Shown one piece after another: positions 5,202 through 37,350 of a stretch of DNA of 64,000 nucleotides. Below the pieces are notes generated by a model that was not told where the DNA came from, did no database searches, and saw only the letters and a program-made list of their open reading frames with translations. Position numbers and translations under genes: made by a program. This stretch comes from a bacterium (GTDB lineage Bacteria; Actinomycetota; Acidimicrobiia; Acidimicrobiales; Bin134): assembly GCA_026709815.1 (NCBI GenBank), contig JAPOSH010000055.1:4363-68362 (forward strand), in the 5' to 3' direction. The stretch's first letter is position 1; each line of letters opens with the position of its first letter.

Positions 5202-5204
5202 CGC

Positions 5205-10207: not shown

Positions 10208-10262
<55 letters not shown>

Positions 10263-11158: not shown

Positions 11159-11178
11159 GCAGGCGCGGATAGAGGCAC

Positions 11179-12699: not shown

Positions 12700-12784
12700 G
12701 CCTCAAAGAGCCGACAGCTCTTCGCGCTTGTTTTGTGCGCGGACGGCTTCGCCTATAAGGTCCGCTCAAAGGGGGTAACCGAGA

Positions 12785-13048: not shown

Positions 13049-13074
13049 AGGCGAGACTGAACTCGCAGGGCGCC

Positions 13075-14793: not shown

Positions 14794-14851
14794 CGCCGTG
14801 CCGCGGCCATCTCTTGAAGAACTCCAGTGCCGCCGAATGCCATCGCCGCTC

Positions 14852-16132: not shown

Positions 16133-16145
16133 CGTCGGCGCCCGG

Positions 16146-16565: not shown

Positions 16566-16585
16566 GCCTCGCCCCCCGTTGATCC

Positions 16586-17776: not shown

Positions 17777-17909
17777 AGTCGCCGATGCTACCGGCTGGCT
17801 TTGTATACCTCTACGGGGAGCGGGACGCGGGGCTTGGGCTTCGGGTGTGCTGGGTCCCAGGGCCGGTGGGTAGAATGGCGATGTCCGCAACGTTGACCGG
17901 GAGAGTTCT

Positions 17910-18236
17910 GTGATCACACTGACTGATTCAGCAACCAGCAAAGTCGGAGATCTCGTGCGCCAGGAGCAGGCTGACGACGAAGAACTGGCGCTGCGGGTCG
18001 CAGTGCGTCCGGGCGGCTGCTCTGGTTTCAGCTATGAGATGTACTTCGACGCCGACATCGGCGCCGAAGACCAAGAGGTTCTCTTCGGCAACGTCAAGGT
18101 TGTCGTCGACACCTCCAGCGCGGCGCTGTTGGAGGGGGCGGTGCTCGACTACAAAGACGGTCTCACCGACGCGGGGTTCTCCATCACCAACCCCAATGCC
18201 CAGCGCACCTGCGGGTGCGGGCAGAGCTTCAGCTAG
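17910..18236 (+). CDS. erpA: HesB/IscA/ErpA-family iron-sulfur cluster insertion protein
   Basis: 108 aa with RPGGCSGFSY and a C-terminal CGCGQSFS. Confidence 0.9.
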   Translation: MITLTDSATSKVGDLVRQEQADDEELALRVAVRPGGCSGFSYEMYFDADIGAEDQEVLFGNVKVVVDTSSAALLEGAVLDYKDGLTDAGFSITNPNAQRTCGCGQSFS

Positions 18237-18240
18237 TGGT

Positions 18241-22505: not shown

Positions 22506-22845
22506 TCCTATTGGACCCTATTCTCCCATAGTCCGGGCGGGAGGCTTCCTCATCTGTTCGGGACAGATCGGGATTGCCGGCGGCTCGCTGGTGCGGGGCG
22601 GGCTCATCGCCCAATTCCGCCAAGCGGTAGCCAACGCCGAAGCGGTGCTGGCCACCGAGGGGGCCACGCTGGGCGATGTGGTCAAAACCACCGTATTCCT
22701 GCTTCACATGAACGACTTCGACACAATGAATGAGGCCTACGTCGAGTGCTTCGGCGGCAACCGCCCCGCCCGCTCCGCCATAGGCGTCGACGCCCTGCCC
22801 CTTGGCGCCCTCGTGGAAATCGAGCTGTTGGCCTACACCGGCTGA
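22498..22845 (+). CDS. RidA/YjgF-family reactive-intermediate deaminase
   Basis: Internal ATG at 22498 in the 22024..22845 frame gives MSTPIGPYSPIVRAGGFLICSGQIG...TTVFLLHMNDF...ARSAIGV..LPLGALVEIE. Divergent from glnE, with an 8-nt overlap of the two starts. Confidence 0.85.
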   Translation: MSTPIGPYSPIVRAGGFLICSGQIGIAGGSLVRGGLIAQFRQAVANAEAVLATEGATLGDVVKTTVFLLHMNDFDTMNEAYVECFGGNRPARSAIGVDALPLGALVEIELLAYTG

Positions 22846-22849
22846 CGTG

Positions 22850-23515
22850 TCAACGCTCCCAGCGGGAAAGGCCGAAGCGGTAGCCGACCGATCTCACCGT
22901 GGTGATCAGACCGGCGTGTTGCTCGCCGAGCTTGGCCCGCAGGCGCCGCACGTGGACATCCACGGTACGGGCGCCGCCGAAGTAGTCGTAGCCCCAAACC
23001 CGGCTGAGCAGCGTCTCGCGGGTGAACACCTTGCCGGGAGAGCCCGCCAGGAACTTGAGCAGCTCATACTCCATGTAGGTGAGGTCGAGAGGCCGGCCGG
23101 CAATGGTGGCCTGATAAGTCTCCACGTTCAGCACCATGGGGCCGTATTCGATCAGTTCGGGGCGCAGGGCGGTTCCCGACCGCCACACCAAGTGGGCCAG
23201 CCGGGCTTCCAGCTCCCGCTGGTGGAAGGGGGTGAGGCAGAAGTCGGTGTAGAGGTCGTCGCGCATGTCCAGTTCGTCCAACTGCGCGCCGGACACCAAC
23301 AACAGCACCGGGATGTCCAGGCCCCGGCGGGCGAGAGCGCGGGAGAAACCGAAGGCATCATCAGGACTCTCCTGAGCGGAAACCACCGCTCCCAGCCACC
23401 GGCCCTCCAGTTCTTGGGCGCTGCCCGCGGCTTTCCAGTTGTATCCCCCCAAGTCCAGCGTGCGAACCAGCTCCGGCGGGGGCGGATCAGGAAAGACGAG
23501 CAGCGGCTCAGTCAC
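22850..23515 (-). CDS. glnR: GlnR-like orphan OmpR-family response regulator
   Basis: C-terminal winged helix (LTYMEYELLKFLAGSPGKVFTRETLLSRVWGYDYFGGARTVDVHVRRLRAKLG) behind an atypical receiver with no obvious acidic pocket. It sits between glnA2 and ridA/glnE. Start trimmed to the GTG at 23515, just after the glnA2 stop. Confidence 0.75.
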   Translation of the reverse strand: MTEPLLVFPDPPPPELVRTLDLGGYNWKAAGSAQELEGRWLGAVVSAQESPDDAFGFSRALARRGLDIPVLLLVSGAQLDELDMRDDLYTDFCLTPFHQRELEARLAHLVWRSGTALRPELIEYGPMVLNVETYQATIAGRPLDLTYMEYELLKFLAGSPGKVFTRETLLSRVWGYDYFGGARTVDVHVRRLRAKLGEQHAGLITTVRSVGYRFGLSRWER

Positions 23516-23520
23516 GGCGG

Positions 23521-24855
23521 TCACCAGGTGTTCAGATACCGGCGGAGTTCGAAGGGCGTGACCTCCCGGCGGTATTCGGCGAACTCGGCCCGCTTGTTGC
23601 GCAGGAACCACTCGTGTATGTGCTCGCCCAGCACCTCGGCCATCAGCGGCGACGACTCCAGAACGTCTAAGGCCTCCGACAGCGACATGGGGAGTTCCGC
23701 GAAGCCTTTGGCGCGGGCTTGGCCTCTGCTCATGGTATAGAGGTCGGCGGACGCCTCCGGGGGCAGCTCGTAGCCCTCCTTCACCCCGTTCAACCCGGCG
23801 GCCAGCACCGCGGAGAACGCCAGATAGGGGTTGGCCGCCGAGTCCAGCGCCCGGTATTCGATTCGAGTGGACGACTCCTTGCCCGGCTTGACCACCGGCA
23901 CCCGCACCAAAGCAGAGCGGTTGTTGCGGGCCCACGAGACAAACGTGGGCGCTTCGTCGCCGGCCACCAGCCGCTTGTAGCTGTTCACCAACTGGTTGGT
24001 CACCGCGGTGATCTCCCGGGCGTGGTGCAAGAGGCCGGCGATGAAGGCTTTGGCCGTTTCCGACAGGCCGTAGTCGTCACCGGGGTCGTGGAAGGCGTTC
24101 ACGTCGTTCTCGAACAGCGACATGTGGGTGTGCATCCCCGACCCCTGCACGCCGTTCAGCGGCTTGGGCATGAACGTGGCATGCAGCTCCCGATCCAGCG
24201 CCAGCTTGCGCACCACCAGCCGCAGGGTCATCACGTTGTCGGCCATGCTCAGCGCCTCGGTGTAGCGCAGGTCGATCTCATGCTGGCTGGGACTCTCCTC
24301 ATGAAAGGAGTACTCCACTGGAATGCCCATGGCCTCCAACATGGTGATCGTGCGCTTGCGCAGGGGGCTGGCCACATCCGCGGTGGTCAAATCGAAATAG
24401 GAGGCGCGGTCCAGCGGCACCAGGGGCTGGTCCGGGTCGCTGTGGCGGAAATAGAAGAACTCCACCTCGGGGGCGGTGTAGAAGGTATAGCCCATCTCGG
24501 CGGCTTTGGACAGGCTGCGCCGCATCACCCAACGGGGATCGCCGGCGAAGGGGGTGCCGTCAGGATTGCGGATGTCGCAGAAGATCCGGCCCGAGGGCTC
24601 TTCGGGGTCGGCCCACGGCAGCAGCTCGAAGGTGGCGGCATCGGGCACGGCCAGCACATCGCTCTCCTGCACTCGGGAGAAGCCGTCGATGGCCGACCCG
24701 TCGAATTGCAGCCCCTCGTCAAAGGCGTCGGCCAGCTCGGCCGGGGAGATGGCCACCGACTTGAGCTGGCCCAGTACGTCGGTGAACCAGAGTCGGATGA
24801 GCCGCACCCCCCGCTCCTCCACAGTGCGGAGCACATAGTCCTTTTGCGGTTCCAT
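23521..24855 (-). CDS. glnA2: glutamine synthetase, GlnA2-type (type I, about 445 aa)
   Basis: 444 aa. IRLWFTDVLGQLKSVAI, FDGSAIDGF, GSGMHTHMSLF and NRSALVRVP are GS motifs. Confidence 0.9.
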   Translation of the reverse strand: MEPQKDYVLRTVEERGVRLIRLWFTDVLGQLKSVAISPAELADAFDEGLQFDGSAIDGFSRVQESDVLAVPDAATFELLPWADPEEPSGRIFCDIRNPDGTPFAGDPRWVMRRSLSKAAEMGYTFYTAPEVEFFYFRHSDPDQPLVPLDRASYFDLTTADVASPLRKRTITMLEAMGIPVEYSFHEESPSQHEIDLRYTEALSMADNVMTLRLVVRKLALDRELHATFMPKPLNGVQGSGMHTHMSLFENDVNAFHDPGDDYGLSETAKAFIAGLLHHAREITAVTNQLVNSYKRLVAGDEAPTFVSWARNNRSALVRVPVVKPGKESSTRIEYRALDSAANPYLAFSAVLAAGLNGVKEGYELPPEASADLYTMSRGQARAKGFAELPMSLSEALDVLESSPLMAEVLGEHIHEWFLRNKRAEFAEYRREVTPFELRRYLNTW

Positions 24856-24955
24856 GGCGAGCTACCGGTGTGGGCCGGCCGAGGGTCTCCAAGGTTTCAT
24901 AGGACTCCAACAGCGTGCCCTGCCAACAGTCGCCGGCGCCAGCCCATTGGCAACG

Positions 24956-24993
24956 TTCACAGAGCTTTTACAATCGGGAAAAACTCTGGAAAC
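24956..24993. promoter_or_regulatory. four phased pentamers resembling GlnR-box half-sites in the glnA2/glnA divergent intergenic region
   Basis: TTCAC-n6-TTTAC-n6-GAAAA-n6-GAAAC with 11-bp phasing, 73 nt upstream of the glnA GTG. The pentamers resemble the published gTnAc / GaAAc GlnR a/b sites, but their order (a,a,b,b) differs from the canonical a-b-a-b. Confidence 0.3.
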
Positions 24994-25065
24994 TCAGCAC
25001 TGCGACAATGAGCTGTGCCCTTGCCGCTTGTGGGAGAGCGAGGGCTGGAAAAGGAGGAACCCACT

Positions 25066-26490
25066 GTGTCAACTCCCCAGGAGATCATCGCACTGGCCGC
25101 GTCTGAGGGGGCGGAGTTCGTGGACATGCGCTTCACCGACGTCCCCGGAGTGCAGCACCACTTCTCGCTTCCTATCAGCCAGTTGACCGAATCGGTGTTT
25201 GAGGAGGGCCTCGGCTTCGACGGCTCCTCGGTGAGCGGCTTCCAAACCATCGACGCCTCAGACATGCTGCTCATCCCCGATCCCGCCACTGCGATCTTCG
25301 ACCCGTTCACCCAGCGCAAGACCTTGGTGCTGCTGTGCGACGTGAAAGATCCCGTCACCGGCGAGATGTACGGCAAAGATCCCCGCGGCGTGGTACGCCG
25401 CTCCCTGGCCTATTTGGCCAGTACCAGGATCGCCGATGCCGCCTATTTCGGGCCGGAGGCTGAGTTCTTCATTTTCGACAGCGTGGCCTTCCAGAACCAT
25501 CCCGATGTGGCCGGGTATCAGATCCGCTCGGCGGAGGGCATCTTTGAGAGCGGTCGACCCTCGGTGAGCGGCGCGCCCAGTCCCGGGCACCGCATCCCCT
25601 ACAAGGGGGGATATTTCCCGCTGGCGCCGATGGACACCTTTCAAGATCTGCGTTCGGAGATGGTGGTGGCGCTCGAGTCGGTGGGCATCCCCATCGAAGT
25701 CCAGCACCACGAGGTGGGCACCGCCGGACAAGCCGAGATCGACATGGAGTTCGACGAGATGCTGACCATGGCCGACAAGGTGCAGCTGTACAAGTATGTG
25801 GTGAAGAATGTGGCCCGCCAGCACGGCTGCACCGCCACATTCATGCCCAAGCCCATCTACGGCGACAACGGCTCGGGCATGCACACCCACCAATCCCTGT
25901 GGCGCGACGGCGACACGCTGATGTACGACGAGCGGGGATACGCCGGACTGTCCGACGTGGCCCGCTGGTACATCGGCGGCCTCTTGGCCCACGCCCCGGC
26001 GATCTTGGCCTTCGCCGCTCCCACCACCAACTCCTACAAACGGCTGGTGCCCGGCTACGAGGCCCCGGTGAACCTGGCCTATTCCCAGCGCAATCGCTCG
26101 GCGGCCATCCGCATCCCGCTGCTCTCCGACAACCCCAAGGCCAAGCGGCTGGAGTTCCGGTGCCCGGACCCCAGCGCCAACCCCTATCTGGCGTTCGCCG
26201 CCATGCTCATGGCCGGCATCGACGGGATCCAGAACCAGATGGATCCGGGCGAACCGCTGGACAAGAACATCTACGACCTGCCGCCCGACGAGGCTGCGGG
26301 CATTGAAACAGTGCCCGGGTCGCTGAGCGCGGCGCTGGAGGCCCTCGAGGCCGACCACGATTTCCTGCTCGCGGGCGACGTGTTCAACTCCGCGCTGATC
26401 GAGTCCTACCTCGAGGTCAAGCAGGAAGAGGTAGATGCAGTCAATCTGCGGCCTCATCCCCTCGAGTTCGAGATGTACTACTCCGTCTAG
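25066..26490 (+). CDS. glnA: glutamine synthetase type I (GlnA)
   Basis: GTG at 25066 with AAGGAGG 9 nt upstream. FVDMRFTDVPG, FDGSSVSGF, NGSGMHTHQSLW and NRSAAIRIP are present. NIYDLPP is a likely adenylylation-site Tyr context, which fits the glnE nearby. Confidence 0.9.
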   Translation: MSTPQEIIALAASEGAEFVDMRFTDVPGVQHHFSLPISQLTESVFEEGLGFDGSSVSGFQTIDASDMLLIPDPATAIFDPFTQRKTLVLLCDVKDPVTGEMYGKDPRGVVRRSLAYLASTRIADAAYFGPEAEFFIFDSVAFQNHPDVAGYQIRSAEGIFESGRPSVSGAPSPGHRIPYKGGYFPLAPMDTFQDLRSEMVVALESVGIPIEVQHHEVGTAGQAEIDMEFDEMLTMADKVQLYKYVVKNVARQHGCTATFMPKPIYGDNGSGMHTHQSLWRDGDTLMYDERGYAGLSDVARWYIGGLLAHAPAILAFAAPTTNSYKRLVPGYEAPVNLAYSQRNRSAAIRIPLLSDNPKAKRLEFRCPDPSANPYLAFAAMLMAGIDGIQNQMDPGEPLDKNIYDLPPDEAAGIETVPGSLSAALEALEADHDFLLAGDVFNSALIESYLEVKQEEVDAVNLRPHPLEFEMYYSV

Positions 26491-26549
26491 GCGCGGACAC
26501 CACCGCCCAACCAATCTGCTTTCGGGCTTCACACCACTAACCTGAACTC

Positions 26550-28205
26550 GTGGCCATGCTGCGGGTGGCTTTGTGCCAGATCAACTCAGTGGTCGGCGAT
26601 ATCGGCGCCAACACCGAGCGCGTGCTCGCTGCGATGGAGGACGCTGAGGCTGCCGGCTGCCAGGCAGCGGTGTTCCCAGAACTGGCCGTCACCGGCTACC
26701 CCCCTGAGGATCTGGTGCTCAAGCGGCGGTTTGTGCAGGACAGCCGCCGTGCGATGGAACACATAGCGGCCCGCTCCCGGTCATGTACCGCAGTCGTGGG
26801 GTTCGCAGACGATGTCGGCGGTTGCCGAAACGCCGCGGGGATCGCGTGCGGCGGCCGTCTGCTGCGGGTCTACCACAAGCGGCAACTCCCCAACTACGGC
26901 GTGTTCGACGAGCGCCGTTATTTTCAGCCTGGTACCGGCGATCCTGTTCTCCACGACATCGCCGGCGTCGCAGTCGGCGTCTCCGTCTGCGAAGACGCAT
27001 GGGTGGCGGGCGGCCCGATGGCTCAGATGGCCGCCGCCGGCGCCGAGGTTCTCTTCAACCTGAATGCCTCTCCGTACCACGCGGGCAAGCGGGATCAGCG
27101 CCTGGAAATCCTCCGGCGCCGCAGTGCGGAGACCGGCTGCGCCATCGCTTATGTCAATCTGGTGGGCGGCCAAGACGAGTTGGTGTTCGACGGCGCCTCG
27201 CTGGTCATGGCGGCCGATGGCCGCGTCATCGCCCAGGCCCCCCCGTTCCGAGAACACCTGCTGATCGCCGAGGTGGAGGTGGCCGACCGGCCCGAGCTAG
27301 CCGAGCAGCCCGCCATCGCCACGGAGATCAACCCGGTGGCGGATGGCTTGGACGGACTCGACGAGCAATACGAGGCCCTGGTGCTGGCTACCCGGGACTA
27401 TGTGCACAAGAACGGCTTCACCGACGTGGGCATCGGCATGTCGGGGGGGATCGACTCCTCGCTGGTGGCGGTTATCGCCGCCGACGCCCTCGGGGCCAGC
27501 CATGTCCACGGCGTTTTGATGCCTTCTCGCTATTCCAGCGACCACTCGGTGGCCGATGCCGAAGCACTGTGCCGCAACCTGGGCATCGACCACCGGATCG
27601 TGCCCGTGGAGCCCGGCCATCAGGCCTTCCTCGACATGCTGGCGCCATCGTTCGACGGCCTCGACCCCGACCTGGCCGAAGAGAACGTGCAGTCCCGCAT
27701 CCGGGGGACGCTGCTCATGGCGCTGTCCAACAAGTTCGGCTGGCTGATCCTCACCACCGGGAACAAGAGCGAGAGCGCAGTGGGCTATTCCACGCTGTAC
27801 GGCGACACAGCCGGGGCCTATGCCGTGATCAAAGACCTGTGGAAACTCCAGGTCTACGCCTTCGCCCGACGCCGCAACCAGCGGGCCGGCCGCGATCTCA
27901 TCCCCGAGAACGTTTTGACCAAGCCGCCGTCGGCCGAACTGCGGCCCGACCAGCAAGACGACCAGAGCCTTCCCCCCTACGACGTGCTCGATCCGCTGCT
28001 CGAGGCTTATGTGGAGGACGACCTCACCGTCGACGACCTGTGTGAGCAGGGTTACGACCCCGCACTGGTGAGCCGCATCGGTGCCATGGTAGACCGAGCC
28101 GAGTACAAGCGGCGTCAGAACCCCCCCGGCGTGCGCATCACCGCCAAGGCTTTCGGCCGAGACCGCCGGTTACCCATCACCAATCACTACCGGGGACGGC
28201 GCTGA
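26550..28205 (+). CDS. nadE: glutamine-dependent NAD+ synthetase NadE
   Basis: 551 aa: N-terminal nitrilase-type domain (LRVALCQIN...FPELAVTGY...CED) plus a synthetase domain with GMSGGIDSS. Confidence 0.9.
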   Translation: MAMLRVALCQINSVVGDIGANTERVLAAMEDAEAAGCQAAVFPELAVTGYPPEDLVLKRRFVQDSRRAMEHIAARSRSCTAVVGFADDVGGCRNAAGIACGGRLLRVYHKRQLPNYGVFDERRYFQPGTGDPVLHDIAGVAVGVSVCEDAWVAGGPMAQMAAAGAEVLFNLNASPYHAGKRDQRLEILRRRSAETGCAIAYVNLVGGQDELVFDGASLVMAADGRVIAQAPPFREHLLIAEVEVADRPELAEQPAIATEINPVADGLDGLDEQYEALVLATRDYVHKNGFTDVGIGMSGGIDSSLVAVIAADALGASHVHGVLMPSRYSSDHSVADAEALCRNLGIDHRIVPVEPGHQAFLDMLAPSFDGLDPDLAEENVQSRIRGTLLMALSNKFGWLILTTGNKSESAVGYSTLYGDTAGAYAVIKDLWKLQVYAFARRRNQRAGRDLIPENVLTKPPSAELRPDQQDDQSLPPYDVLDPLLEAYVEDDLTVDDLCEQGYDPALVSRIGAMVDRAEYKRRQNPPGVRITAKAFGRDRRLPITNHYRGRR

Positions 28206-28207
28206 GC

Positions 28208-28762
28208 ATGGACATCGAGCAGTTGAGCGATGCCTGTGGCGGGCTGGCCTGGATATCGGAGCGGCTGTTCGAGATCCAAGGCCGCTTGGCCACCGGCCCC
28301 GATGCCGACGGCGCGCTGGACGCCCGCTCTCGGGCTTTTCTGGCCCGATCCAGCCGTCACCATGGGCAGCACGCCCAATGGTGGCGGGCAGCGCTGCCCG
28401 ATTCGCCGGCTTTGGCCGCCCACAACCGAGTTCGCCCGCCCACGCAAGCCTGGGCCCGACTGATCGGCCACATAGAAGTCGCCGCACCGGGTGCCGCGGT
28501 TGACGCGCTTTGTGAAGTGGCTCTGCCCCAGCTGAGCTTTGTGATCGAGTGCCTAGGCCGTGAGCTGTCGCCGGTGAGCGACGGCGCCGTGATGCGCACG
28601 GCTCGCATGGTGGCCGCCGATTTGGCGGAGGGGCGGCGCGATGCGAAGAAGGCGTGGACTCCGCCGAACACCTCCGCTGCCGGTGCGCCCGAGGAACTGG
28701 CTTCTGGCTTTGCCGCCGACGACCGCGAAAAAAGATGGCCTCCACTGGTGACACATCTGTGA
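28208..28762 (+). CDS. hypothetical protein, translationally adjacent to nadE
   Basis: 184-aa ORF starting 3 nt after the nadE stop. I recognise no family; coding is inferred only from length, position and GC3-rich codons. Confidence 0.45.
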   Translation: MDIEQLSDACGGLAWISERLFEIQGRLATGPDADGALDARSRAFLARSSRHHGQHAQWWRAALPDSPALAAHNRVRPPTQAWARLIGHIEVAAPGAAVDALCEVALPQLSFVIECLGRELSPVSDGAVMRTARMVAADLAEGRRDAKKAWTPPNTSAAGAPEELASGFAADDREKRWPPLVTHL

Positions 28763-28778
28763 TGAAGCGGGTAGCCTT

Positions 28779-28825
28779 ACCGGTCAAACATTGTCTGTGT
28801 CTCTGCTCGGTCAGCGTTGACCGGT
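28779..28825. repeat. 9-bp perfect inverted repeat ACCGGTCAA ... TTGACCGGT (29-nt spacer) upstream of the sigma factor gene
   Basis: ACCGGTCAA at 28779-28787 and its exact reverse complement at 28817-28825. It lies in the 5' region of the sigma-70 gene: upstream of the GTG at 28889, and overlapping the alternative TTG at 28817. Confidence 0.6.
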
Positions 28826-28888
28826 CCGACAGCGGTGTCGGTAACCATTCGGATTATCGAGCCCAATGACCATCGGGAAGGTGTGACT

Positions 28889-29848
28889 GTGCCGAAAGAG
28901 CGTGTTGAGCGAGACGATGAGGATCTCGTCCGCCTCTATCTGACGGATATCGGCCAATACCCGCTGCTCACCAAAGACGACGAAGTCGAGCTGGCCCAGA
29001 AAATCGAGGAGGGCAACGAGGCGCAAGCTCTCCTCGACCAGGACAAGCAGTTCGAAACCGGCAGCCCGGAGCGGCTCTCGCCGGCCCGACGGAGGCTGCT
29101 GCGCCGCCAGGTCAAGGTGGGCGAGCAGGCTGAGCGGCGCTTCGTCCAGTCCAACCTTCGGCTGGTGGTGTCCATCGCCAAGAAGTACCAGGCGTCAGGG
29201 CTGCCCTTGCTGGATCTGATCCAAGAGGGCAACCTCGGTCTGATGCATGCGGTGGAGAAGTTCGACTGGCGGAAGGGGTTCAAGTTCTCCACCTACGCCA
29301 CTTGGTGGATTCGCCAGGCCATCACCCGGGGCATCGCCAATACCGGGCGCACCATTCGCCTTCCCGTCCACGCCGGCGACACCCTGGCCCGCCTCCAGAA
29401 AGCCCGGGCCAACCTGGAGAAGAAGCTGGGCCGCCCCGCCACCCTGGCGGAGCTGGCGGTCGAGGTGGATCTCTCCGAGGAGAAAGTCACCGAAGCGCTG
29501 CGCTGCGCGGCCGAGCCGCTCTCGCTCAGCGAGCCGCTACGCGAGGACGGCGATGCCGAGCTCGGAGATGTGGTAGAGGACCGCTCCGCCGAGTCCCCCT
29601 TCGAAGTGGCCGCCACTGCGCTCTTGCCCGAGGAGATCACCCGCCTGCTCGGCCCGCTCGACGAACGCGAGCGAGAGATCCTCCAACTCCGCTTCGGCCT
29701 CGATCGGGGCGAGCCCCGCACGCTCGAAGAGGTGGGCGAACACTTCAACCTCACCAGAGAGCGCATCCGCCAAATCGAAGCTCGGGCCATGTCCAAGCTC
29801 CGCCACCCCAGCAGCGACACCGGCGCCCGCGACCTACTAGCGGTCTAA
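28889..29848 (+). CDS. sigma-70 family RNA polymerase sigma factor, group 1/2 (SigB/HrdB-like, short N-terminus)
   Basis: YLTDIGQYPLLTKDDEVELA (region 1.2), NLRLVVSIAKKY, DLIQEGNLGLMHAVEKFDWRKGFKFSTYATWWIRQAITR (region 2), region 4 LTRERIRQIEARAMSKLRH. Start chosen at the GTG at 28889 (GGAAGG 8 nt upstream); the track start at 28817 is also possible. Confidence 0.85.
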   Translation: MPKERVERDDEDLVRLYLTDIGQYPLLTKDDEVELAQKIEEGNEAQALLDQDKQFETGSPERLSPARRRLLRRQVKVGEQAERRFVQSNLRLVVSIAKKYQASGLPLLDLIQEGNLGLMHAVEKFDWRKGFKFSTYATWWIRQAITRGIANTGRTIRLPVHAGDTLARLQKARANLEKKLGRPATLAELAVEVDLSEEKVTEALRCAAEPLSLSEPLREDGDAELGDVVEDRSAESPFEVAATALLPEEITRLLGPLDEREREILQLRFGLDRGEPRTLEEVGEHFNLTRERIRQIEARAMSKLRHPSSDTGARDLLAV

Positions 29849-29934
29849 CCTGCTCCCGACCCCTGTTCACGGACCTTCAAACCACCCCCACACCAAGAAT
29901 TCGCGAGGGCGCATACATCTCTACGTTCGGGTAG

Positions 29935-30027
29935 CGGAGGTGGACGGGAATCGAACCCGCCGGACGGGGATCGCCCGTCCCACCCGCTTTGAAGGCGGGG
30001 GAGCCCACCAGGTACTCAGACACCTCC
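29935..30027 (-). tRNA. selC: tRNA-Sec (selC), anticodon UCA, CCA not encoded
   Basis: Reverse strand: GGAGGTG...CCCGC-CTTCAAA-GCGGG (UCA in the same CTTCAAA loop as E. coli selC). Long variable arm GGACGGG-CGATC-CCCGTCC (7 bp). T arm GGCGGG-TTCGATT-CCCGTC (6 bp), then CACCTCC-G. The 7+6 = 13 bp acceptor/T helix is characteristic of tRNA-Sec. Length 93 nt. Confidence 0.85.
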
Positions 30028-30066
30028 CTGGAAGAGGTCATCTTACCGGCGCTGGCCTTGACCACC

Positions 30067-31623
30067 CTATCCCGGCAGCACCTCGCCCTGTGGGTCGCTC
30101 ACCCCGCTCATCAGCAGGCCCACCTGCTCAACAGTGGCATCGGCCCGGTCCACCCGGCCCATCACCGACCCTTCGTACATCACGACCAGCCGATCCGAGA
30201 GCGCCATTATCTCGTCCAAATCCTCGCTGATCAACAAAATGGCCTTGCCCTGCGAGCGCTGGGTCAAAAGCTGCTCGTGGATGTACTCGGCGGCACCGAT
30301 GTCAACCCCCCGAGTGGGCTGGGCCACCAGCAGCATCTCGGCATCGCCGCTGAACTCCCGGGCGATGACCACTTTCTGGATGTTGCCCCCCGACAGCTTC
30401 CGGGTGAGCGTCCCGGTGCTCGGCGTGCGAATCGAGTAGTCGTCGATCAGCTGTTGGCCGCGGGACTCGATGGCGCTGAGGCGCAACACCCCGCGCCGGG
30501 CGTACGGTGGCTGGTCGTAATCCGCCAGAATCAGGTTCTCGGCCACGGTGAAGTCGCCGACGCTGCCGTACTTCATGCGCTCTTCGGGCACATAGGCCAA
30601 GCCCATCGCCCGCACCTGTTTGGGAGTGGCAGCCTTCACCGAGCAGCCGTCGAGGAAGACTTCGCCCGATTCGATCTCCCGCAACCCCACAATGGCTTCG
30701 GCCAGCTCTCGCTGCCCGTTGCCCGACACGCCCACGATCCCGACGATCTCGCCGGCGCAGACCTCAACGTCCATGTCGCGCACGGCCAGCTCCCCCCGGT
30801 CGCCCCGAACCCGGAGGCTCTTCACCTCCAGTTTGGCATCGCCCGACTCCTGAGAGGCCAGGGTGCGGGTGAACTCCACCGGTCGCCCCACCATCATCAC
30901 GGCCAATGACTCCCGGCTGGACGCCACGGGGGTGGTGCGTCCTGCGACCCGCCCGTCGCGCAAAACGGTGATCTCGTCGGAGATCTCCATCACCTCGTTC
31001 AGCTTGTGGGAGATGAACACCAGCCCCTTTCCGGCCGCGGTGAGCTGACGGAGGGTGGCGAACAGGTCGGCAACTTCGGGTGGGGTCAGCACCGCGGTGG
31101 GCTCATCCAACACCAGCAACCGCACGTTTCGGTACAGCGCTTTGACGATCTCGGCTCGCTGCCGCTCCCCCACCGCCATCTGCCAGATGTAGGCATCGGG
31201 ATCGACGTGCAGACCGAACTCCTCAGAAACCTTCCGGATGCGGCGGCGAATCGGCTGGAGGTTGGTCAGGCTCAGTGGTGTTCCCAACCCCAAGGCCACG
31301 TTCTCGGCCACGGTCAGCGTGTCCACCAGCATGAAGTGCTGGTGGATCATGCCGATGCCGGCCAAGATCGCCGCGGAGGGAGAATCGATGCTCATCTCGG
31401 CGCCGTCGAAGAAGATCGACCCTTCATCGGGCTGATGGAGCCCATAGAGGATCTTCACCAGTGTGCTCTTGCCAGCCCCGTTCTCTCCCAAAAGGGTGTG
31501 AACCTGACCGGCCAGCACCGTGAAGTCGACGCCGTCGTTGGCAACCACCCCGGGGAAGCGCTTGGTTATGCCGCGCATCTCCAGCATCGGCGCCTGCTTC
31601 GACAGCGCCAGCTCGAAGTTCAT
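30067..31623 (-). CDS. ABC transporter ATP-binding protein, tandem-NBD CUT2/BMP type (NupO/RbsA-like)
   Basis: 518 aa with two NBDs: GENGAGKSTLVKIL / LSGGNIQK-type signatures, LVLDEPTA and LLVAQPTRGVD. Confidence 0.9.
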   Translation of the reverse strand: MNFELALSKQAPMLEMRGITKRFPGVVANDGVDFTVLAGQVHTLLGENGAGKSTLVKILYGLHQPDEGSIFFDGAEMSIDSPSAAILAGIGMIHQHFMLVDTLTVAENVALGLGTPLSLTNLQPIRRRIRKVSEEFGLHVDPDAYIWQMAVGERQRAEIVKALYRNVRLLVLDEPTAVLTPPEVADLFATLRQLTAAGKGLVFISHKLNEVMEISDEITVLRDGRVAGRTTPVASSRESLAVMMVGRPVEFTRTLASQESGDAKLEVKSLRVRGDRGELAVRDMDVEVCAGEIVGIVGVSGNGQRELAEAIVGLREIESGEVFLDGCSVKAATPKQVRAMGLAYVPEERMKYGSVGDFTVAENLILADYDQPPYARRGVLRLSAIESRGQQLIDDYSIRTPSTGTLTRKLSGGNIQKVVIAREFSGDAEMLLVAQPTRGVDIGAAEYIHEQLLTQRSQGKAILLISEDLDEIMALSDRLVVMYEGSVMGRVDRADATVEQVGLLMSGVSDPQGEVLPG

Positions 31624-31635
31624 GTTCGACCCGTC

Positions 31636-31708
31636 AAGGGGTTGGAACTATCGCCCGGTGGAGATGGATCCAAAGGGGTTGGAACTATTGCCCGGTGGAG
31701 ATGGATCC
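31636..31708. repeat. 37-bp-period tandem duplication of the 3' end of the SBP-fusion gene
   Basis: AAGGGGTTGGAACTATCGCCCGGTGGAGATGGATCC (31636-31671) versus AAGGGGTTGGAACTATTGCCCGGTGGAGATGGATCC (31673-31708): 35 of 36 bases identical. The right copy holds the real ...GSISTGQ-TAG end of the gene. The left copy fills most of the 61-nt gap before the ATPase gene. Confidence 0.9.
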
Positions 31709-33820
31709 GTCGATCAAACCGGCGATGGTGGCCTCGGCCGAGGCCCGCACATCGGCGGGAAGGTCCATAGCCTCGTTGAACTGGATATCGAGTCCTCCAT
31801 CCTCAAAGGTCATGATGAAGGTGGTTCCGCCCAAGATGCCCTCCTTGACCTGCTCGACCACCTCCGAGAGCACAGCCTCCCAGCGGTACACCTGCGAGGC
31901 CACCACGATGTCCTCACCGAGAGCGGTTTGGTTGGCCTGGGTGCCGAACCACAGCACGCCGTTCTCCTGGGCCACCCCGGTGGCGCCCACCACCATCTGG
32001 GCCGAACCGGTCAGCACGTCGGCGCCGGCGGAGATATGCGATTGAGCGGCTTCGGCCGCCAGTGCGACGTCGGAGAACGAACCGGTGTAGACGATGTTGA
32101 CCTCCACGTCGGGATTCTGGGCCGTGGCGCCGGCCGCGAACCCGTCGACGTAGAGCTTGGCGTCGCCCACCTCGATCGGACCGACCACGCCGATTACGCC
32201 GCTGGAAGTGAGCTGGGCGGCCACCACGCCGTTGACGTAGCCGCCGAGGTCGGAGCGAACCGAGTAGGAGTTCACATTGGGCAGGCCGAAAGTGTCAACC
32301 GCGGTGCCCCAAGCGAACGAGGTGTCGGGGAAGTCCGGCGCGATCTCCTGAAGCGGGCCGCCGTACTGGGAGCCGTGGGCGATGACCAGGTCATAGCCAT
32401 CCTCGGCATAGCCCCGGATGGCCGCCGCCGCATCCTCCACGATGAAGGTGCCGTCGGTGATGGCGAACTCGCTGATCTCCCCCGCATCCACGAGGACGTT
32501 GACCGCGTCGAACATGCTCTGGGTGAAAGCCAGATCGTTGCTCGCACTCGGCGCCACCACTGCGACGCGCAAGGGCGCCGCGGCCGACGGCGCGGGAGCG
32601 GCCGCAGGGGTGAAACCGCTGGCATTGCGAGCTTCGTCGAGCCAGCCGTCGACCGTAGCCCGGTTGTCGGCGATCCACTGGGCGGCGTGGCGGTTCACGT
32701 CGGCGGTCGTATCCTCACCGCTGTCGTAGAGCACGTTCTGGAGCGCCACATCAACCACGCTGATCTGCACCAGCTCCAGCAGCCTCGCCGCCGCGGGGTT
32801 GGCGACCAGGAAATCGTTGTTGGCCGTGACCTTGATATCGGCAGAGTTGCGGAACAGCCAGCAAGGATCGTTTGTGCAGACATCGGTGCTCAAAGAAGCC
32901 GGAGCAGAGACCGCGAAGCCCGGGTTGTCCGTTGAGCCGTCATGCAGCTTGTCGGGATCGTGGGCCAGCCACATCACGTTGTCGCCCGGTATGAGCTGGG
33001 TGACGTAACCGCTGGGCGTCCACGTGTAGGCCACAAACGGGGTGCCATCGGCGGCCCGGGCCACGGCGTCGGCGATGCTGGCGTCATAGCCCGCGACGTC
33101 AAGCTGCTCGACTCTGTCGGCATATCCGGCCAACTGGATCGTCTCGTCCAGCGCGACAAGGCAGCCCCAGCCCTCGATGCAGCCGAAGAGCTGAAGAACC
33201 CCGTCACCGGGGTTGGGATCAGCCGACTCGTACAACTCGAACAATGCGTCGTCGTTGACGATCTGATCAAACGTCTTGATCCCGTACTCCTCGACGAGCG
33301 ACTTGTTCGTCAGCAGCCCCTCGAGACCCCCGGCGAGCATCAACTCGCCGATCACCGACACGTGCTGGTTGACCAAGGACCCGTCAGGCATCTCGCCGTT
33401 GAGAAACGGGTCGTGATTCGGAGTCCAAGAGTTGGCCCAGAAATCGAAAGCTCCCTCGGCCATGGCCACGTACGCGTTCGCAGGCGAGAGCTCGAGATCA
33501 GCCGGCTCGCTGACTTCGTATCCGAGCTCTTCCAGCAGATGGTGATAGATGGCCGCTTGCATGTAGCCCGTGCTCCAATCCGCCCGGGCCATGGTGACGC
33601 TGACTCCCTCGCCAGGGATCGCATCCATCGGTGCTTCGTTGTCTGGATCGGCGGGCGCCTCGGAATCAGGGGCGGCGGGGGCTTCGGTGCCAGAAGCGAC
33701 AGGGGCTTCGGATCCGGCCCCCGAATCGTCGTCGTTGCCACAGGCTGCGGCAGTCAAAGCAAACACCGCCACCAGGACGACCCACACTCGTCGAGACTTC
33801 TTCATCAGCTTCGTCAACAT
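31685..33820 (-). CDS. lipoprotein fusing an OpuAC/ProX-type glycine-betaine-binding domain to a BMP-family (PnrA/NupN-like) binding domain
   Basis: 711 aa. Lipobox LTAAAC/GNDDD. The N-terminal half (ADWSTGYMQAAIYHHLLEELGYEV...FWANSWTPNHD) looks OpuAC-like. The C-terminal half (LRVAVVAPSASNDLAFTQSMFDAV...DLVIAHGSQYGGP) looks BMP-like. Confidence 0.8.
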   Translation of the reverse strand: MLTKLMKKSRRVWVVLVAVFALTAAACGNDDDSGAGSEAPVASGTEAPAAPDSEAPADPDNEAPMDAIPGEGVSVTMARADWSTGYMQAAIYHHLLEELGYEVSEPADLELSPANAYVAMAEGAFDFWANSWTPNHDPFLNGEMPDGSLVNQHVSVIGELMLAGGLEGLLTNKSLVEEYGIKTFDQIVNDDALFELYESADPNPGDGVLQLFGCIEGWGCLVALDETIQLAGYADRVEQLDVAGYDASIADAVARAADGTPFVAYTWTPSGYVTQLIPGDNVMWLAHDPDKLHDGSTDNPGFAVSAPASLSTDVCTNDPCWLFRNSADIKVTANNDFLVANPAAARLLELVQISVVDVALQNVLYDSGEDTTADVNRHAAQWIADNRATVDGWLDEARNASGFTPAAAPAPSAAAPLRVAVVAPSASNDLAFTQSMFDAVNVLVDAGEISEFAITDGTFIVEDAAAAIRGYAEDGYDLVIAHGSQYGGPLQEIAPDFPDTSFAWGTAVDTFGLPNVNSYSVRSDLGGYVNGVVAAQLTSSGVIGVVGPIEVGDAKLYVDGFAAGATAQNPDVEVNIVYTGSFSDVALAAEAAQSHISAGADVLTGSAQMVVGATGVAQENGVLWFGTQANQTALGEDIVVASQVYRWEAVLSEVVEQVKEGILGGTTFIMTFEDGGLDIQFNEAMDLPADVRASAEATIAGLIDGSISTGQ

Positions 33821-33946
33821 TTATTTTCCTCAACTCTCTCTTGCCGCCTGTGGCGCAGCGCCCAAACGACGCCTGAGACGCTAGCCCTGCCGCGCCAAGA
33901 CAGACAATCACAGCCCCTGTGTGGGACCGACCGCGGCCATCCCTTC

Positions 33947-36118
33947 CTAAGGCACCGTCTGCTGGCCGTCGACGGGGACATAGGTCTGCGACCGCCCGAA
34001 CTTGGCCAACACGCCAGCAGTGCTCGCCATGAGCAGAACCCCGGCGATCAAACTGATAAACGCTCCCGCGCCGCTGGTGACCTGGGGGTCGGCCACCCTG
34101 AGCAGTGAGGCAATCCACGCTGTGGCCACCACCATCAGCGCAACGCCGATGCAAGCCACCGCCGCGCTCCAACGGCGCCGCCGGCGCTCGTCGTTTCCGA
34201 ACACACCCGCCGCGGGCAGCGTAAAACCGAGGCCTGTTATGGCAAGTCCTATGGTCAAGTACCCGTATCTGCTGCCGTGCGCTACAAAACCGTCGATCAC
34301 AACGGTGCCAGTACGCCGGGCGGCGTTGGAAATGGCGCTGATTTCTTGTGCGATCTCAGCGGCGATGGTCGGATCTTCGAGAGCTTGCTGGCGCAGAGCT
34401 TCGATCTGGTTTTCCACCGCCGGATCGGGAACGATGCCCGCGCCGGTGCGGCTGTCGAACGACCAGCCCGCGAACCCGCTGATGACGGTTAATAACACCG
34501 CGGCGACCGCCACCCCGAGTTTGCCGAGCGAGACCCCAGCGGGAAGCGGCGTCAACGCCGAATAAGGTGCTTTTCTCAGCCACTGGATGGCGGCAACGAG
34601 CGCGAGTGCTCCTCCGGCGAGCGCGACCCAAGGGCCGATGCCATCGCGGTAAGCCACATTGTCGGGCCCTGGGGCGGACCAGAGATAGGCGACAGCCGCG
34701 GCCAGCACACCGACCGACATCACGAACACCCCGTTCGATCCGAAAAGGCGCATCCCGCGGCCCGGTCGCCACAAGTTGGCGCCCGCCGCCGCAATTATCA
34801 GCGCCGCAAAACCAAAAGCGCCGATGCCGTAGAACGACCCTCCTGAAGCGCTGAAACCATTGAAGCTGCTCCCTGCGAGCGGATTGGCAGCCGCTGCTTG
34901 GTATTCGAACTCACCAGGGGCCCCCACCGGATCAACTTCGACATATTCCCATCGGCCTGTATCCACGAGGCGCTGGTGGCCGGAGATTTTGCCCGAGTCG
35001 TGTCCCCACGGGAGGAACACGGCAACCACCACCACGAGCGCTCCAACGGCGGCAGCCACCAGGCTGCGGCGCTCTTGCGGGCACAAAGGTGCAGGTTGAC
35101 CCCGGGTCTTGGCCACAGTGCCGACCGCCTCCGCCTGAGGCAGGAGTGATTCAGGGTCCCGGCGATGGGCCCATGCCCGTCGCAAACGCGTGAGCAAGTT
35201 CTCAGGGTCGCTGCTCTCGGGCTGCGAAATGCGGTCGAGAACCACCGCCACGATGTAAAGGGCCAGCCCAGATGACGCACCAGCTTCGATATCAAGGTTT
35301 CTGATGGCCCGGAACACCAGCAGGCCGAGGCCGCCGGCGCCCATGATCGCGGCGATTCCCAGCATGGAGATCGACAGCAGCAGCGTCTGGTTGAGCCCGG
35401 TCATCACCGCGGGGCGGGCCAGTGGCAACTGAACGTCAGCGAGCACCCGCCACTCGGGCGCGCCGTAAGCCCGACTGGCCTCCACAACATCGGCGGGCAC
35501 CTGTCGGATGCCGAGGTTCGTCAGCCGTATCAACGGCGGCAGCGCGAACACCATGGTGACCATCGTGGCCGGCGTGAGGCCAATGCTGAAGAAAAAGACG
35601 ATCGGCAGCATGTAGACGAATGGGTGAACCACCTGCATCGCATCGAGCACTGGCCGCACTGCGTTCCACGCGCCGTCGGAACGGCCGCAGATAATGCCGA
35701 CGGGGATGCCTATGAGCGCACAGAGCAAAACGGCGACGACGATCATGCCCACGGTAAGGGCGGTCTCCTCCCAATACTCGCCGCCCAGCAGGCCACAGAG
35801 CGCCAAGAGCCCGGCCACCAAGCCGCCGACTCTGACGTTGCGAAAAACAGTTCCAACAGCAAAAAAGAGGAGGCATACCGCGATCCAGGGCATGTCGGTG
35901 ATCTGCCACCAAGGTTGGTGGCCGGGACCATCCACGAAGTTGCGGAACAGGAATGAGAAAGGCCATCTCACGATGTCCAGCAGCCACTCCAGGTTGAGGT
36001 CAACCCATCTGACCATTTGCTCGACCCAAGCCCCGAAAGGCACCTCCCACTGGTCCAGAACCCTGTTGTCGGTGATAGCGGGAGACTCCGAGACGGCCAA
36101 CAGATTCGGCGGGCTCAT
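33947..36118 (-). CDS. OpuAB/ProW-type ABC permease with about 390-aa C-terminal multi-TM extension of unknown function
   Basis: 723 aa. The first 320 aa or so carry the betaine-permease core (LIRLTNLGIRQVPADVVEASRAYGAPEWRVLADVQLPLARPAVMTGLNQT). The remainder is hydrophobic with no family I recognise. Confidence 0.8.
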   Translation of the reverse strand: MSPPNLLAVSESPAITDNRVLDQWEVPFGAWVEQMVRWVDLNLEWLLDIVRWPFSFLFRNFVDGPGHQPWWQITDMPWIAVCLLFFAVGTVFRNVRVGGLVAGLLALCGLLGGEYWEETALTVGMIVVAVLLCALIGIPVGIICGRSDGAWNAVRPVLDAMQVVHPFVYMLPIVFFFSIGLTPATMVTMVFALPPLIRLTNLGIRQVPADVVEASRAYGAPEWRVLADVQLPLARPAVMTGLNQTLLLSISMLGIAAIMGAGGLGLLVFRAIRNLDIEAGASSGLALYIVAVVLDRISQPESSDPENLLTRLRRAWAHRRDPESLLPQAEAVGTVAKTRGQPAPLCPQERRSLVAAAVGALVVVVAVFLPWGHDSGKISGHQRLVDTGRWEYVEVDPVGAPGEFEYQAAAANPLAGSSFNGFSASGGSFYGIGAFGFAALIIAAAGANLWRPGRGMRLFGSNGVFVMSVGVLAAAVAYLWSAPGPDNVAYRDGIGPWVALAGGALALVAAIQWLRKAPYSALTPLPAGVSLGKLGVAVAAVLLTVISGFAGWSFDSRTGAGIVPDPAVENQIEALRQQALEDPTIAAEIAQEISAISNAARRTGTVVIDGFVAHGSRYGYLTIGLAITGLGFTLPAAGVFGNDERRRRRWSAAVACIGVALMVVATAWIASLLRVADPQVTSGAGAFISLIAGVLLMASTAGVLAKFGRSQTYVPVDGQQTVP

Positions 36119-37350
36119 AGGAAGACTTCCCGCTCGAAATCATCGATGAGGCTTTCGACCCGGCCCATCTCCTCCATGATGTGGCGAGGGTCGAGGTTCC
36201 CGACCAGCAGCCCCGCCTCATCGCATACTGCGATGGAAAGCCCGCGGCCCGCAACGGCATACACCTCGTTGAGCCGGTCGTTGGGGCCGCAGCGGTCGAA
36301 GTCGGTGCGCAGCGCCGGGGCCAGATCAGTGGTTCCCATGCTCGCCGCCCGGGCCGCGTCATCCACCGTGAGCAGGTGCGTGGGCACCCCCTCGGGGTCG
36401 AGCACAAAAGCACCTATGCGGTTGCCCATCACGCTGAGGGCTTCAGCGATGGTGGCGTCGTCATCGACGGGGGCGGGCGGTTGCATCACCTCGTGAACCT
36501 GAATAACACGGCCCTGGTCGACGTCCTGCACGAACTCGGCCACATACCCCGTGGCCGGTTCGGTGAGAATCTCCTCGGGGGTGCCGATCTGCACGACGGC
36601 GCCGTCTTTCATGATGCACACCCGGTCGCCGATGCGGAGCGCCTCGTTCAGATCGTGGGTGATGAACAAGATGGTCTTGTGAAGCTCGCTTTGGATTTGC
36701 AGCAACTCGTCCTGCATCTGACGGCGGATCAGCGGGTCGAGCGCACTGAAGGCTTCGTCCATCAGCAGTATTTCGGGATCCGAAGCCAGCGCTCGGGCCA
36801 GACCCACCCGCTGCTGCATGCCGCCGGAGAGCTCCGACGGCATGTTCTGCGAATAGGCGTCGAGGCCGACGAGGGCCAGCGCGCCCATAGCCGCTTCGTT
36901 GCGGGCGGCCTTGTCCACGCCCTGAACCTTGAGGCCGTAGCCCACGTTGTCGATGACATTGCGGTGGGGGAACAGCGCGAAGTGCTGGAAGACCATGCCC
37001 ATGTGGCGGCGGCGAAACGCCTGAAGCTCTGAGCCTTGGAGCGTCTGCACGTCGACGCCATCGACCATGACGGTGCCGGCGGTGATGTTGTGAAGTTTAT
37101 TGACGGTGCGGATGGCCGTGGACTTGCCCGACCCCGACAAGCCCATCACCACGAATATCTCGCCTTTGGACACTGAGAAAGACACATTGTGCAGACCGAT
37201 CACATGCCCGGTCTCGGCCTGCACTTCGTCTTTGCCCATCCCCGAACTCGCCAACTCGAACGCCCTGCCGCGTGGTTGGGGGCCGAAGATCTTGTAGACG
37301 CCGTCCAGCACGACGAGATCCTCGCCGCTCTCGTCGCCCCCCTGTGCCAT
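36115..37350 (-). CDS. glycine betaine/proline ABC transporter ATP-binding protein (OpuAA/ProV) with C-terminal CBS pair
   Basis: Track ORF trimmed to the ATG at 37350 (MAQGGDESGEDLVVLDGVYKIFG). GLSGSGKST, LSGGMQQRVGLARAL and LLMDEAFSALD are present, followed by a CBS-like tail. ATGA-type overlap with the permease start. Confidence 0.9.
   Translation of the reverse strand: MAQGGDESGEDLVVLDGVYKIFGPQPRGRAFELASSGMGKDEVQAETGHVIGLHNVSFSVSKGEIFVVMGLSGSGKSTAIRTVNKLHNITAGTVMVDGVDVQTLQGSELQAFRRRHMGMVFQHFALFPHRNVIDNVGYGLKVQGVDKAARNEAAMGALALVGLDAYSQNMPSELSGGMQQRVGLARALASDPEILLMDEAFSALDPLIRRQMQDELLQIQSELHKTILFITHDLNEALRIGDRVCIMKDGAVVQIGTPEEILTEPATGYVAEFVQDVDQGRVIQVHEVMQPPAPVDDDATIAEALSVMGNRIGAFVLDPEGVPTHLLTVDDAARAASMGTTDLAPALRTDFDRCGPNDRLNEVYAVAGRGLSIAVCDEAGLLVGNLDPRHIMEEMGRVESLIDDFEREVFL

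Follow-up and report, generated by a model that had tools for sequence, protein, structure and literature searches.

In a 64-kb stretch of an Acidimicrobiales genome (the window; GTDB Bin134, assembly GCA_026709815.1, contig JAPOSH010000055.1, positions 4,363–68,362), a single 711-residue lipoprotein carries two different classes of substrate-binding domain, an N-terminal OpuAC/ProX-type domain and a C-terminal domain of the BMP family. Its gene lies between the OpuAA(CBS)/OpuAB pair of an OpuA-type ATP-binding cassette (ABC) importer and a tandem ABC ATPase with two nucleotide-binding domains (NBDs). The two BPD_transp_2 permeases that would complete a BMP-type importer are encoded 22 kb away. 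An inversion split a BMP-type importer operon. We consider it likely that the fusion arose later and that the one lipoprotein now serves two importers.

The proposed sequence of events is as follows. The opuA locus would be an OpuA/ProU-type betaine importer operon (OpuAA with CBS domains, OpuAB and an OpuAC lipoprotein) that captured half of a BMP-type importer. The ancestral BMP operon, situated beside Tad pilus genes, encoded permease 1, permease 2, a Bmp lipoprotein and the tandem-NBD ATPase. An inversion of approximately 25–35 kb (24.6 kb in the window), with breakpoints just past the permease-2 stop codon and just past an opuAC::opuAC gene, left the permeases in place and landed bmp and the ATPase gene behind the opuA operon in the same orientation; the genes from MFS through CoA-transferase/SDR thereby came to lie behind the permeases. 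In a second step, recombination in linker DNA would have inserted an OpuAC module and its linker between the signal peptide and the mature BMP domain, and the lineage of the window would afterwards have lost its dedicated OpuAC::OpuAC gene. The product would be one lipid-anchored protein with two intact, independent Venus-flytrap heads. The OpuAC head would bind a quaternary-ammonium solute, such as glycine betaine, and dock on OpuAB/OpuAA, and the BMP head would bind a planar N-heterocycle and dock on permeases 1 and 2, which would be powered in trans by the tandem-NBD ATPase, the product of the gene next to the fusion. The conservation of the domains, the constraint on all parts, the status of the fusion as the sole OpuAC protein of its operon, and the shared NCBIfam set of the BMP-system components suggest that both heads are used and that the products of two loci assemble into the BMP importer.

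A lipoprotein with two complete binding domains

The four minus-strand genes that a sequence-only reading of the window had placed at 30067–37350 all exist at these coordinates. That reading had also recognized an OpuAC half and a BMP half in the lipoprotein, and Pfam boundary mapping confirmed that both binding domains are complete. The OpuAC profile matches residues 74–384 (E = 4e-27, profile positions 2–256 of 257) and the Bmp profile residues 418–680 (E = 4e-38); both scores are far above the gathering thresholds and, therefore, a chance match is excluded. The signal peptide of the fusion is of the same type as that of the OpuAC::OpuAC gene that neighbors it in relatives. The BMP part lacks a separate signal peptide; its lipid anchor comes from the N-terminal signal peptide of the fusion. 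This half is the whole mature domain of the ancestral stand-alone Bmp lipoprotein.

The same architecture is found in other genomes. ENA holds a 711-residue fusion protein that differs by one residue, and approximately 20 further OpuAC+Bmp proteins are 63–87% identical; most of these come from the Acidimicrobiales genus Candidatus Poriferisocius, whose members are associated with sponges. All of the fused proteins examined (21/21) have a homologous junction motif: the OpuAC domain extends to its natural C-terminus (...DGWL.EAR) and is joined by a short Pro/Ala linker to the mature BMP domain, which starts with (F/L)RVAVVAPSASNDL. The peptide stretch spanning the junction is NASGFTPAAAPAPSAAAPLRV. 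The linker itself is short, of low complexity and variable. Four closed or near-closed long-read genomes (L001, L002, L088 and L089; L numbers designate the loci that were compared) share the gene order of the window, namely sulfatase, DUF6576, OpuAA, OpuAB, the fusion, the tandem ATPase, a convergent sigma factor, NadE and GlnA.

Binding sites of the two heads

The OpuAC head aligns with Escherichia coli ProX (PDB 1R9L; phmmer E = 1.5e-34). An AlphaFold2 (AF2) model of the whole fusion, built with 20 close homologs, superposes its OpuAC half onto 1R9L with a Foldseek template-modelling (TM) score of 0.86. The three tryptophans of ProX (W65, W140 and W188), its H69 and its C136–C142 disulfide are kept as W132, W218, W267, H136 and C214/C220. 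The head has all features of a glycine-betaine/proline-betaine cage. Its score against the ProX equivalog model NF008334 is slightly under the cutoff (210.1 vs 215).

The best PDB matches of the BMP half are a Brucella protein (3S99, E = 4e-24) and Pseudomonas AtzT (6PI5, E = 8e-22); PnrA is matched weakly (E = 2e-6). The ligand of AtzT is guanine, and adenine was used in modelling 3S99 (PMC6834077). The nucleoside, PnrA and NupP/NupQ labels of the sequence-only reading are not upheld, since free purine bases are the ligands of the closest relatives with solved structures, and the pocket differs even from theirs. Aligned with the AtzT pocket, the BMP half retains the aromatic sandwich and the acidic residue (Tyr45 as F432, Trp194 as F582, and Glu165 as D553), whereas the hydrogen-bonding residues are altered (Ser97 to G483, Asn218 to S606, and Asn220 to Q608). 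All six mapped positions are invariant among the fusion proteins. This combination makes a planar N-heterocycle a more likely ligand than a nucleoside, and the changed hydrogen-bonding residues suggest that the ligand is probably neither guanine nor adenine.

An ancestral operon split by an inversion

Using permease 1 as query and one genome per species, we collected 80 loci and mapped them with the proteins of the window. Approximately 50 loci of Ilumatobacter and further Acidimicrobiia have the order permease 1, permease 2, Bmp, tandem ATPase. This order is also intact in seven genomes of the Poriferisocius clade (L012, L022, L023, L025, L029, L033 and L041), where Bmp is a separate lipoprotein that carries its own signal peptide and is 82–91% identical to the BMP half in the window. 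The tandem ATPase comes after bmp in every intact operon, which bears out its earlier assignment as the type of ATPase that works with BMP proteins. The sequence-only reading had also remarked that the permeases of such a system are missing from the locus and had pointed to the pair at 5938–8003; the gene order in sister genomes and outgroups identifies this pair as the cognate one. Its view that one transporter may be divided between two loci is likewise supported by synteny and purifying selection.

Five of the seven intact operons (L012, L022, L025, L029 and L041) occupy the same Tad-adjacent position. At four of the loci (L012, L025, L029 and L041), the sigma factor, NadE and GlnA come next after the intact operon, oriented as if window positions ~8004–32600 had been flipped. 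The other un-inverted junction is known from a different genome, the closed genome L085, in which OpuAA, OpuAB and OpuAC::OpuAC are followed by MFS, DUF4389, Amidohydro_2, CoA-transferase, SDR, a response regulator, STAS and NfeD. Nucleotide comparison (blastn) gives the same picture from both sides. L012 aligns to window positions 1–8003 and then from 32599 down to 24812; L085 aligns from 49381 down to 33986, from 33619 down to 32631 (OpuAC modules), and then from 8020 up to 12424.

Breakpoint A is located 1–7 nt past the permease-2 stop codon. Breakpoint B falls in the 110 nt that separate opuAC::opuAC from the MFS gene, and the right end of the inverted segment in the window is at the BMP/OpuAC junction. 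As both breakpoints are intergenic, the inversion was clean, carrying the whole bmp gene and the ATPase gene behind the opuA operon. Only chance 7–8-mers were found in a search for inverted repeats at the two breakpoints, and neither a reciprocal chimeric product nor a remnant of the Bmp signal peptide was found after permease 2.

Every genome with a located fusion protein has a split permease locus (the window, L001/L080, L002/L006, L088/L005 and L089/L055). The split locus is also present in L018, L021 and L030, for which the fusion-protein genomes were matched indirectly. No fusion protein comes from a genome with an intact operon.

The inversion also accounts for the neighbors of the permeases. 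Many split genomes retain MFS, DUF4389 and Amidohydro_2 between permease 2 and the CoA-transferase, and these three genes are lost in the window, L014 and L021. The 19-bp spacing between permease 2 and the CoA-transferase in the window results from the inversion and the subsequent loss of this segment. The co-orientation of the permeases with the CoA-transferase and SDR, to which the sequence-only reading had drawn attention, is thus a by-product; the two enzymes do not belong to the transporter, and their orientation is accidental.

Seven split genomes (L007, L010, L011, L018, L027, L030 and L036) carry a paralogous opuA-like set (~12200–15400) between permease 2 and MFS, with an ATPase that is 62% identical and a permease that is 52% identical and has the C-terminal extension described below; the region downstream of the breakpoint is, therefore, variable among split genomes. 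In two others, an extra insertion of ~400 bp lies between permease 2 and MFS (L005 12060–12449, L019 12060–12495). The variable region of L019 contains a transposase-like open reading frame (ORF; 14000–14938).

Two other routes to the present arrangement were considered and rejected. One was a deletion between adjacent tandem operons (opuAC::opuAC next to permease-permease-bmp::bmp). The bmp genes of close relatives are single-domain and the permeases are still at the ancestral site, which fits an inversion and not a deletion. The other saw the fusion as a rescue that supplied a signal peptide to a bmp gene truncated at the breakpoint; the breakpoints are intergenic, and L089 retains the upstream region of bmp together with its ribosome-binding site (RBS).

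Proposed origin of the fusion by module recombination

The fusion seems to have been a second event, after the inversion. The 121 nt that precede the fusion gene in L089, RBS included, share 79% identity with the permease-2/bmp spacer of the intact genome L025. In L088, the fusion junction opens with ARSATEFMVTPAAA, which is the interdomain linker of the OpuAC::OpuAC protein of the same genome.

Tandem binding lipoproteins are found repeatedly in this lineage, as OpuAC::OpuAC, as Bmp::Bmp, as proteins with at least 4 OpuAC modules, and as a kinase joined to Bmp::Bmp. The last two are represented by P0015 (984 residues, at least 4 consecutive OpuAC modules) and P0101 (997 residues, a Ser/Thr protein kinase domain followed by a Bmp::Bmp tandem). 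Further examples, of the OpuAC::OpuAC and Bmp::Bmp kinds with modules of ~1 kb, are L085 12295–14604, L001 7508–9772, L088 12447–14699, L089 12435–14753, L003 10001–12016, P0011, P0026, P0048 and P0052. The two copies inside one tandem protein are 78–100% identical (87–100% in all but one, P0084 at 78%, of the 12 checked); orthologs of tandem binding proteins across species are only 58–70% identical. In L001, L088 and L089, the three OpuAC modules of a genome, namely the pair in the tandem gene and the single module of the fusion, share 93–100% DNA identity, and in L089 all three are 100% identical over 990 nt. Between genomes, the DNA identity of OpuAC modules is 72–90%. The modules, therefore, undergo strong concerted evolution, which is unusual for binding proteins; no description of concerted evolution of tandem binding-domain modules was found in the literature searched. 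As the OpuAC head is homogenised with the dedicated OpuAC::OpuAC gene, it must be the same functional module.

We infer from these comparisons that an OpuAC module and its linker were copied into the linker region of bmp through recombination in low-complexity linker DNA. Some stand-alone Bmp linkers contain perfect tandem peptide repeats (EEAPM approximately 9 times, and EEPMDEPAA-type; L025 12188–12520 and L041 12184–12560), and such highly repetitive linker-coding DNA is probably the substrate of these recombination events. A remnant of a third OpuAC module (~45 codons, VNVTPGKGVSVAQARVDWSTGYMQAAIY...) is present in L089 (14753–15088) past the OpuAC::OpuAC stop codon, joined directly to the old permease-2/bmp spacer. 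Module recombination seems to have left it behind as a scar. In L001, L088 and L089, the fusion is still preceded by the OpuAC::OpuAC gene, which the window and L002 have lost. These two losses were independent and followed different routes, since the fusion genes of the window and L002 carry different signal-peptide types.

Selection on the separated parts and alternative explanations

The ratio of nonsynonymous to synonymous substitution rates (dN/dS) was calculated by the pairwise Nei–Gojobori method among three split genomes (window, L001/L080 and L002/L006; dS 0.5–0.8). For the BMP system, it is 0.03–0.085 for permease 1, 0.025–0.084 for permease 2, 0.10–0.12 for the BMP domain and 0.08–0.15 for the tandem ATPase; for the OpuA system, 0.05–0.07 for OpuAA, 0.10–0.14 for OpuAB and 0.12–0.27 for the OpuAC domain. 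These values match those among genomes with intact operons. All four parts of the BMP system have, thus, been under purifying selection since the split. Permease 1 is 90–93% identical among the split genomes, and the orphan permeases are 90–95% identical between species. Of the 104 alignment columns with at least 95% conservation among 42 stand-alone orthologs, the BMP domains of five fusion proteins keep all 104. When 20 fusion proteins are compared, invariant columns are more numerous in the BMP half than in the OpuAC half. In the window and L002, the fusion is the sole OpuAC protein in the operon, and OpuAA and OpuAB are still constrained. The idea that one fused protein feeds two importers, raised in the sequence-only reading, finds support in this conservation, from which we infer it. 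Promoter and terminator scans of both loci gave counts at chance level.

Several points weigh against our account. The paralog search covers 64 kb, and a second BMP-type set elsewhere in the genome is possible. The selective advantage of the fusion is not evident, and the fusion may be a neutral by-product of module recombination. Structure prediction, which the sequence-only reading had proposed as a check on both domains, supports the OpuAC half only: the AF2 model of the BMP half is uninformative (predicted local distance difference test score, pLDDT, <50), because the alignment is shallow. In neighbor-joining trees of the two permeases and of Bmp plus ATPase, the intact L012, L025 and L029 fall among the split genomes, and none of 200 bootstrap replicates recovers the split genomes as monophyletic. 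The trees, therefore, do not establish that the inversion arose only once; its recurrence, recombination between lineages and poor resolution at saturated sites are all possible causes of this pattern.

The confinement of our view to 64 kb leaves some room for other partners: the BMP head and ATPase could use a different BPD_transp_2 pair, or the permeases at 5938–8003 another binding protein or ATPase. Several BMP-type and OpuA-type paralog sets do occur in related Acidimicrobiia (L053, L083 and L087). We regard such partners as unlikely, since, in all intact relatives, this bmp and ATPase have the pair at 5938–8003 as their orthologous and syntenic partner, and all four parts share low dN/dS since their separation. 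For the permeases, BMP domain, tandem ATPase and OpuA parts alike, tblastn detects no further paralog within the window. In addition, the best NCBIfam hits of the BMP half, tandem ATPase, permease 1 and permease 2 all belong to one four-component set ("putative B6 ABC transporter", NF047927/28/29/30), with scores that are all far under the cutoffs (84.7/400, 190.5/465, 161.2/400 and 514.6/670).

A second alternative is that the fusion was selected as a tether linking the two importers or their ligand states, for example with an osmotically gated OpuA controlling access to the BMP head. The short, low-complexity and variable linker and the lack of a confident interdomain contact in the AF2 model do not favor such coupling, and a neutral origin suffices in a lineage that builds tandem binding domains by module recombination. 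Nevertheless, more than 20 protein clusters, with identities as low as 63%, have kept the fusion and its conserved junction, and OpuAC::OpuAC was lost twice independently (window and L002) with the fusion alone left. On balance, we give coupling a low probability.

It is very improbable that the rearrangement left a BMP half and an orphan ATPase without function in the opuA transcript, with the OpuAC head alone working. The operon is physically broken and the benefit of the fusion is not obvious, as a relic would predict, but the dN/dS values of the BMP domain and ATPase equal those of intact operons, the conserved BMP positions are fully retained, the ATPase motifs are intact, and neither the excess of invariant columns in the BMP half nor the near-identity of the orphan permeases across species fits decay. 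Finally, although frameshift errors are possible in high-GC metagenome assemblies, an assembly or gene-calling artefact joining two adjacent binding-protein genes is already effectively refuted by independent closed genomes from long reads and by many metagenome-assembled genomes, in all of which the ORF is continuous and its in-frame junction conserved, and by the lack of a separate signal peptide on the BMP part.

Features of the locus and its surroundings

The coordinates of all features are given in Table 1.

Table 1. Features of the two transporter loci in the 64-kb window.
Feature	Position in window	Strand	Basis
OpuAA/ProV-type ABC ATPase, C-terminal CBS region, 411 aa	36115..37350	-	Pfam ABC_tran + CBS
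OpuAB/ProW-type permease, 723 aa (permease part aa 1-~300)	33947..36118	-	Pfam BPD_transp_1, aa 137-294 only
Fused binding lipoprotein, 711 aa	31685..33820	-	Pfam OpuAC + Bmp
Lipoprotein signal peptide and lipobox MLTKLMKKSRRVWVVLVAVFALTAAAC, Cys27	33742..33820	-	Read from sequence
OpuAC/ProX-type betaine-binding domain, aa ~61-398	32627..33640	-	Pfam, phmmer, Foldseek
Pro/Ala-rich interdomain linker and fusion junction NASGFTPAAAPAPSAAAP	32573..32626	-	Sequence comparison
BMP-family (PF02608) binding domain, aa 417-711	31688..32572	-	Pfam Bmp
Tandem-NBD ABC ATPase, 518 aa	30067..31623	-	Two Pfam ABC_tran stretches
Permease 1, BPD_transp_2, 377 aa	5938..7071	+	Pfam; orthologs in intact BMP operons
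Permease 2, BPD_transp_2, 311 aa	7068..8003	+	Pfam; orthologs in intact BMP operons
CoA_transf_3 (family III CoA-transferase)	8022..9260	+	Pfam
SDR	9257..10207	+	Pfam
Segment inverted vs ancestral arrangement, 24.6 kb	8004..32630	.	blastn collinearity, breakpoint mapping, ORF-level synteny

The start of OpuAA is the ATG at 37350, in agreement with orthologs of 407 residues, and the protein passes the NCBIfam proV subfamily model TIGR01186 (360.4 bits, cutoff 326.6). Both halves of the tandem-NBD ATPase have regular Walker A, signature and Walker B motifs. The best NCBIfam matches of the OpuAB-type permease, ChoW (224 bits, cutoff 363) and ProW (222 bits, cutoff 439), are under the equivalog cutoffs.

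The OpuAB-type permease continues into a C-terminal extension of ~400 residues (aa ~320–723, window ~33947–35158) with approximately 8 transmembrane helices, according to hydropathy and AF2. These helices form two 4-helix groups (pLDDT 80–97 in the helices), accompanied by small outside β-sheets. A Pfam search of the extension gave no match, and Foldseek detected a weak likeness to LetA (E = 5e-3) and to claudin/TARP four-helix proteins (probability 0.9–0.99, E >0.1). The extension is kept in more than 100 homologs of 700–790 residues, whether or not the fusion is present.

Sulfatase genes are located 5′ of the opuA operon (window 38321–40213, minus strand), and L088 has three tandem copies encoding 756 residues each (957–7795); this fits a sponge-symbiont lifestyle. 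The divergent neighbor of the permease pair is a Tad/Flp pilus set (CpaF, TadZ-like and TadB/C-like; window 1–5894, minus strand). A second CpaF paralog with 40% identity is encoded at 53352–54230 (plus strand).

Comparison with known transporters and implications

Neither transporter is out of the ordinary for its known kind, ProU/OpuA in one case and BMP-type in the other, and the locus is a well-explained curiosity rather than a new type of system. The OpuA part resembles ProU (ProVWX) and Bacillus subtilis OpuA in its CBS-bearing ATPase, its BPD_transp_1 permease and the OpuAC/ProX fold with tryptophan cage, His69 and disulfide. It differs from them in the extra membrane domain of the permease, in ProX, ProW and ChoW equivalog scores below cutoff, and in its binding protein, which is a lipoprotein that continues into a BMP domain here and is a tandem OpuAC::OpuAC in relatives. 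The BMP part has the components of the Treponema pallidum PnrA operon and of Borrelia burgdorferi BmpA–D with BB0677–BB0679, namely a PF02608 lipoprotein, a tandem-NBD ATPase and two BPD_transp_2 permeases. In Borrelia, BMP binding proteins can be encoded apart from the translocator (PMC7093131). In contrast, the ATPase here stays with the binding protein, apart from the permeases, so that the components are not in one operon, and the binding domain is fused behind an unrelated one. Binding domains tethered near a translocator by flexible linkers are known from GlnPQ and Lactococcus lactis OpuA (PMC8025302, PMC11065425). Those tandem domains are mutually homologous, fused to the permease and serve one translocator, whereas the heads of the present lipoprotein belong to different structural classes, are lipid-anchored, and have separate translocator genes. 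A literature search for hetero-fused binding proteins and for transporters of Ca. Poriferisocius returned nothing specific, and no such protein was found described.

A textbook ABC importer has a dedicated binding protein, encoded together with its translocator. The arrangement described here is a natural and evolutionarily stable exception, with a chimeric receptor and with the ATPase and receptor of one importer encoded 22–35 kb from its permeases. Both oddities persist under purifying selection in many species of a sponge-symbiont genus. What is unusual is the presence of two head classes on one lipid anchor, the separation of ATPase and receptor from the permeases, and an evolutionary path that is fully traceable; as such, the locus provides a breakpoint-resolved example of how an inversion and linker-mediated recombination can produce a new domain architecture. 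It also carries a warning for annotation, as pipelines have named the fusion as "BMP family" only or as "glycine betaine" binding only.

The system is ready-made for asking whether tethered heterologous binding domains act independently. There is an outside chance that a tether of a few nanometres forces OpuA-type and BMP-type translocators into one membrane neighborhood or couples them and, more broadly, that ~1-kb binding modules flanked by Pro/Ala-rich sequence are recombining cassettes that build multi-headed receptors in these Acidimicrobiia. If such coupling were true, the lipoprotein would be a natural example in which a single binding protein forms a physical link between two architecturally different ABC importers.

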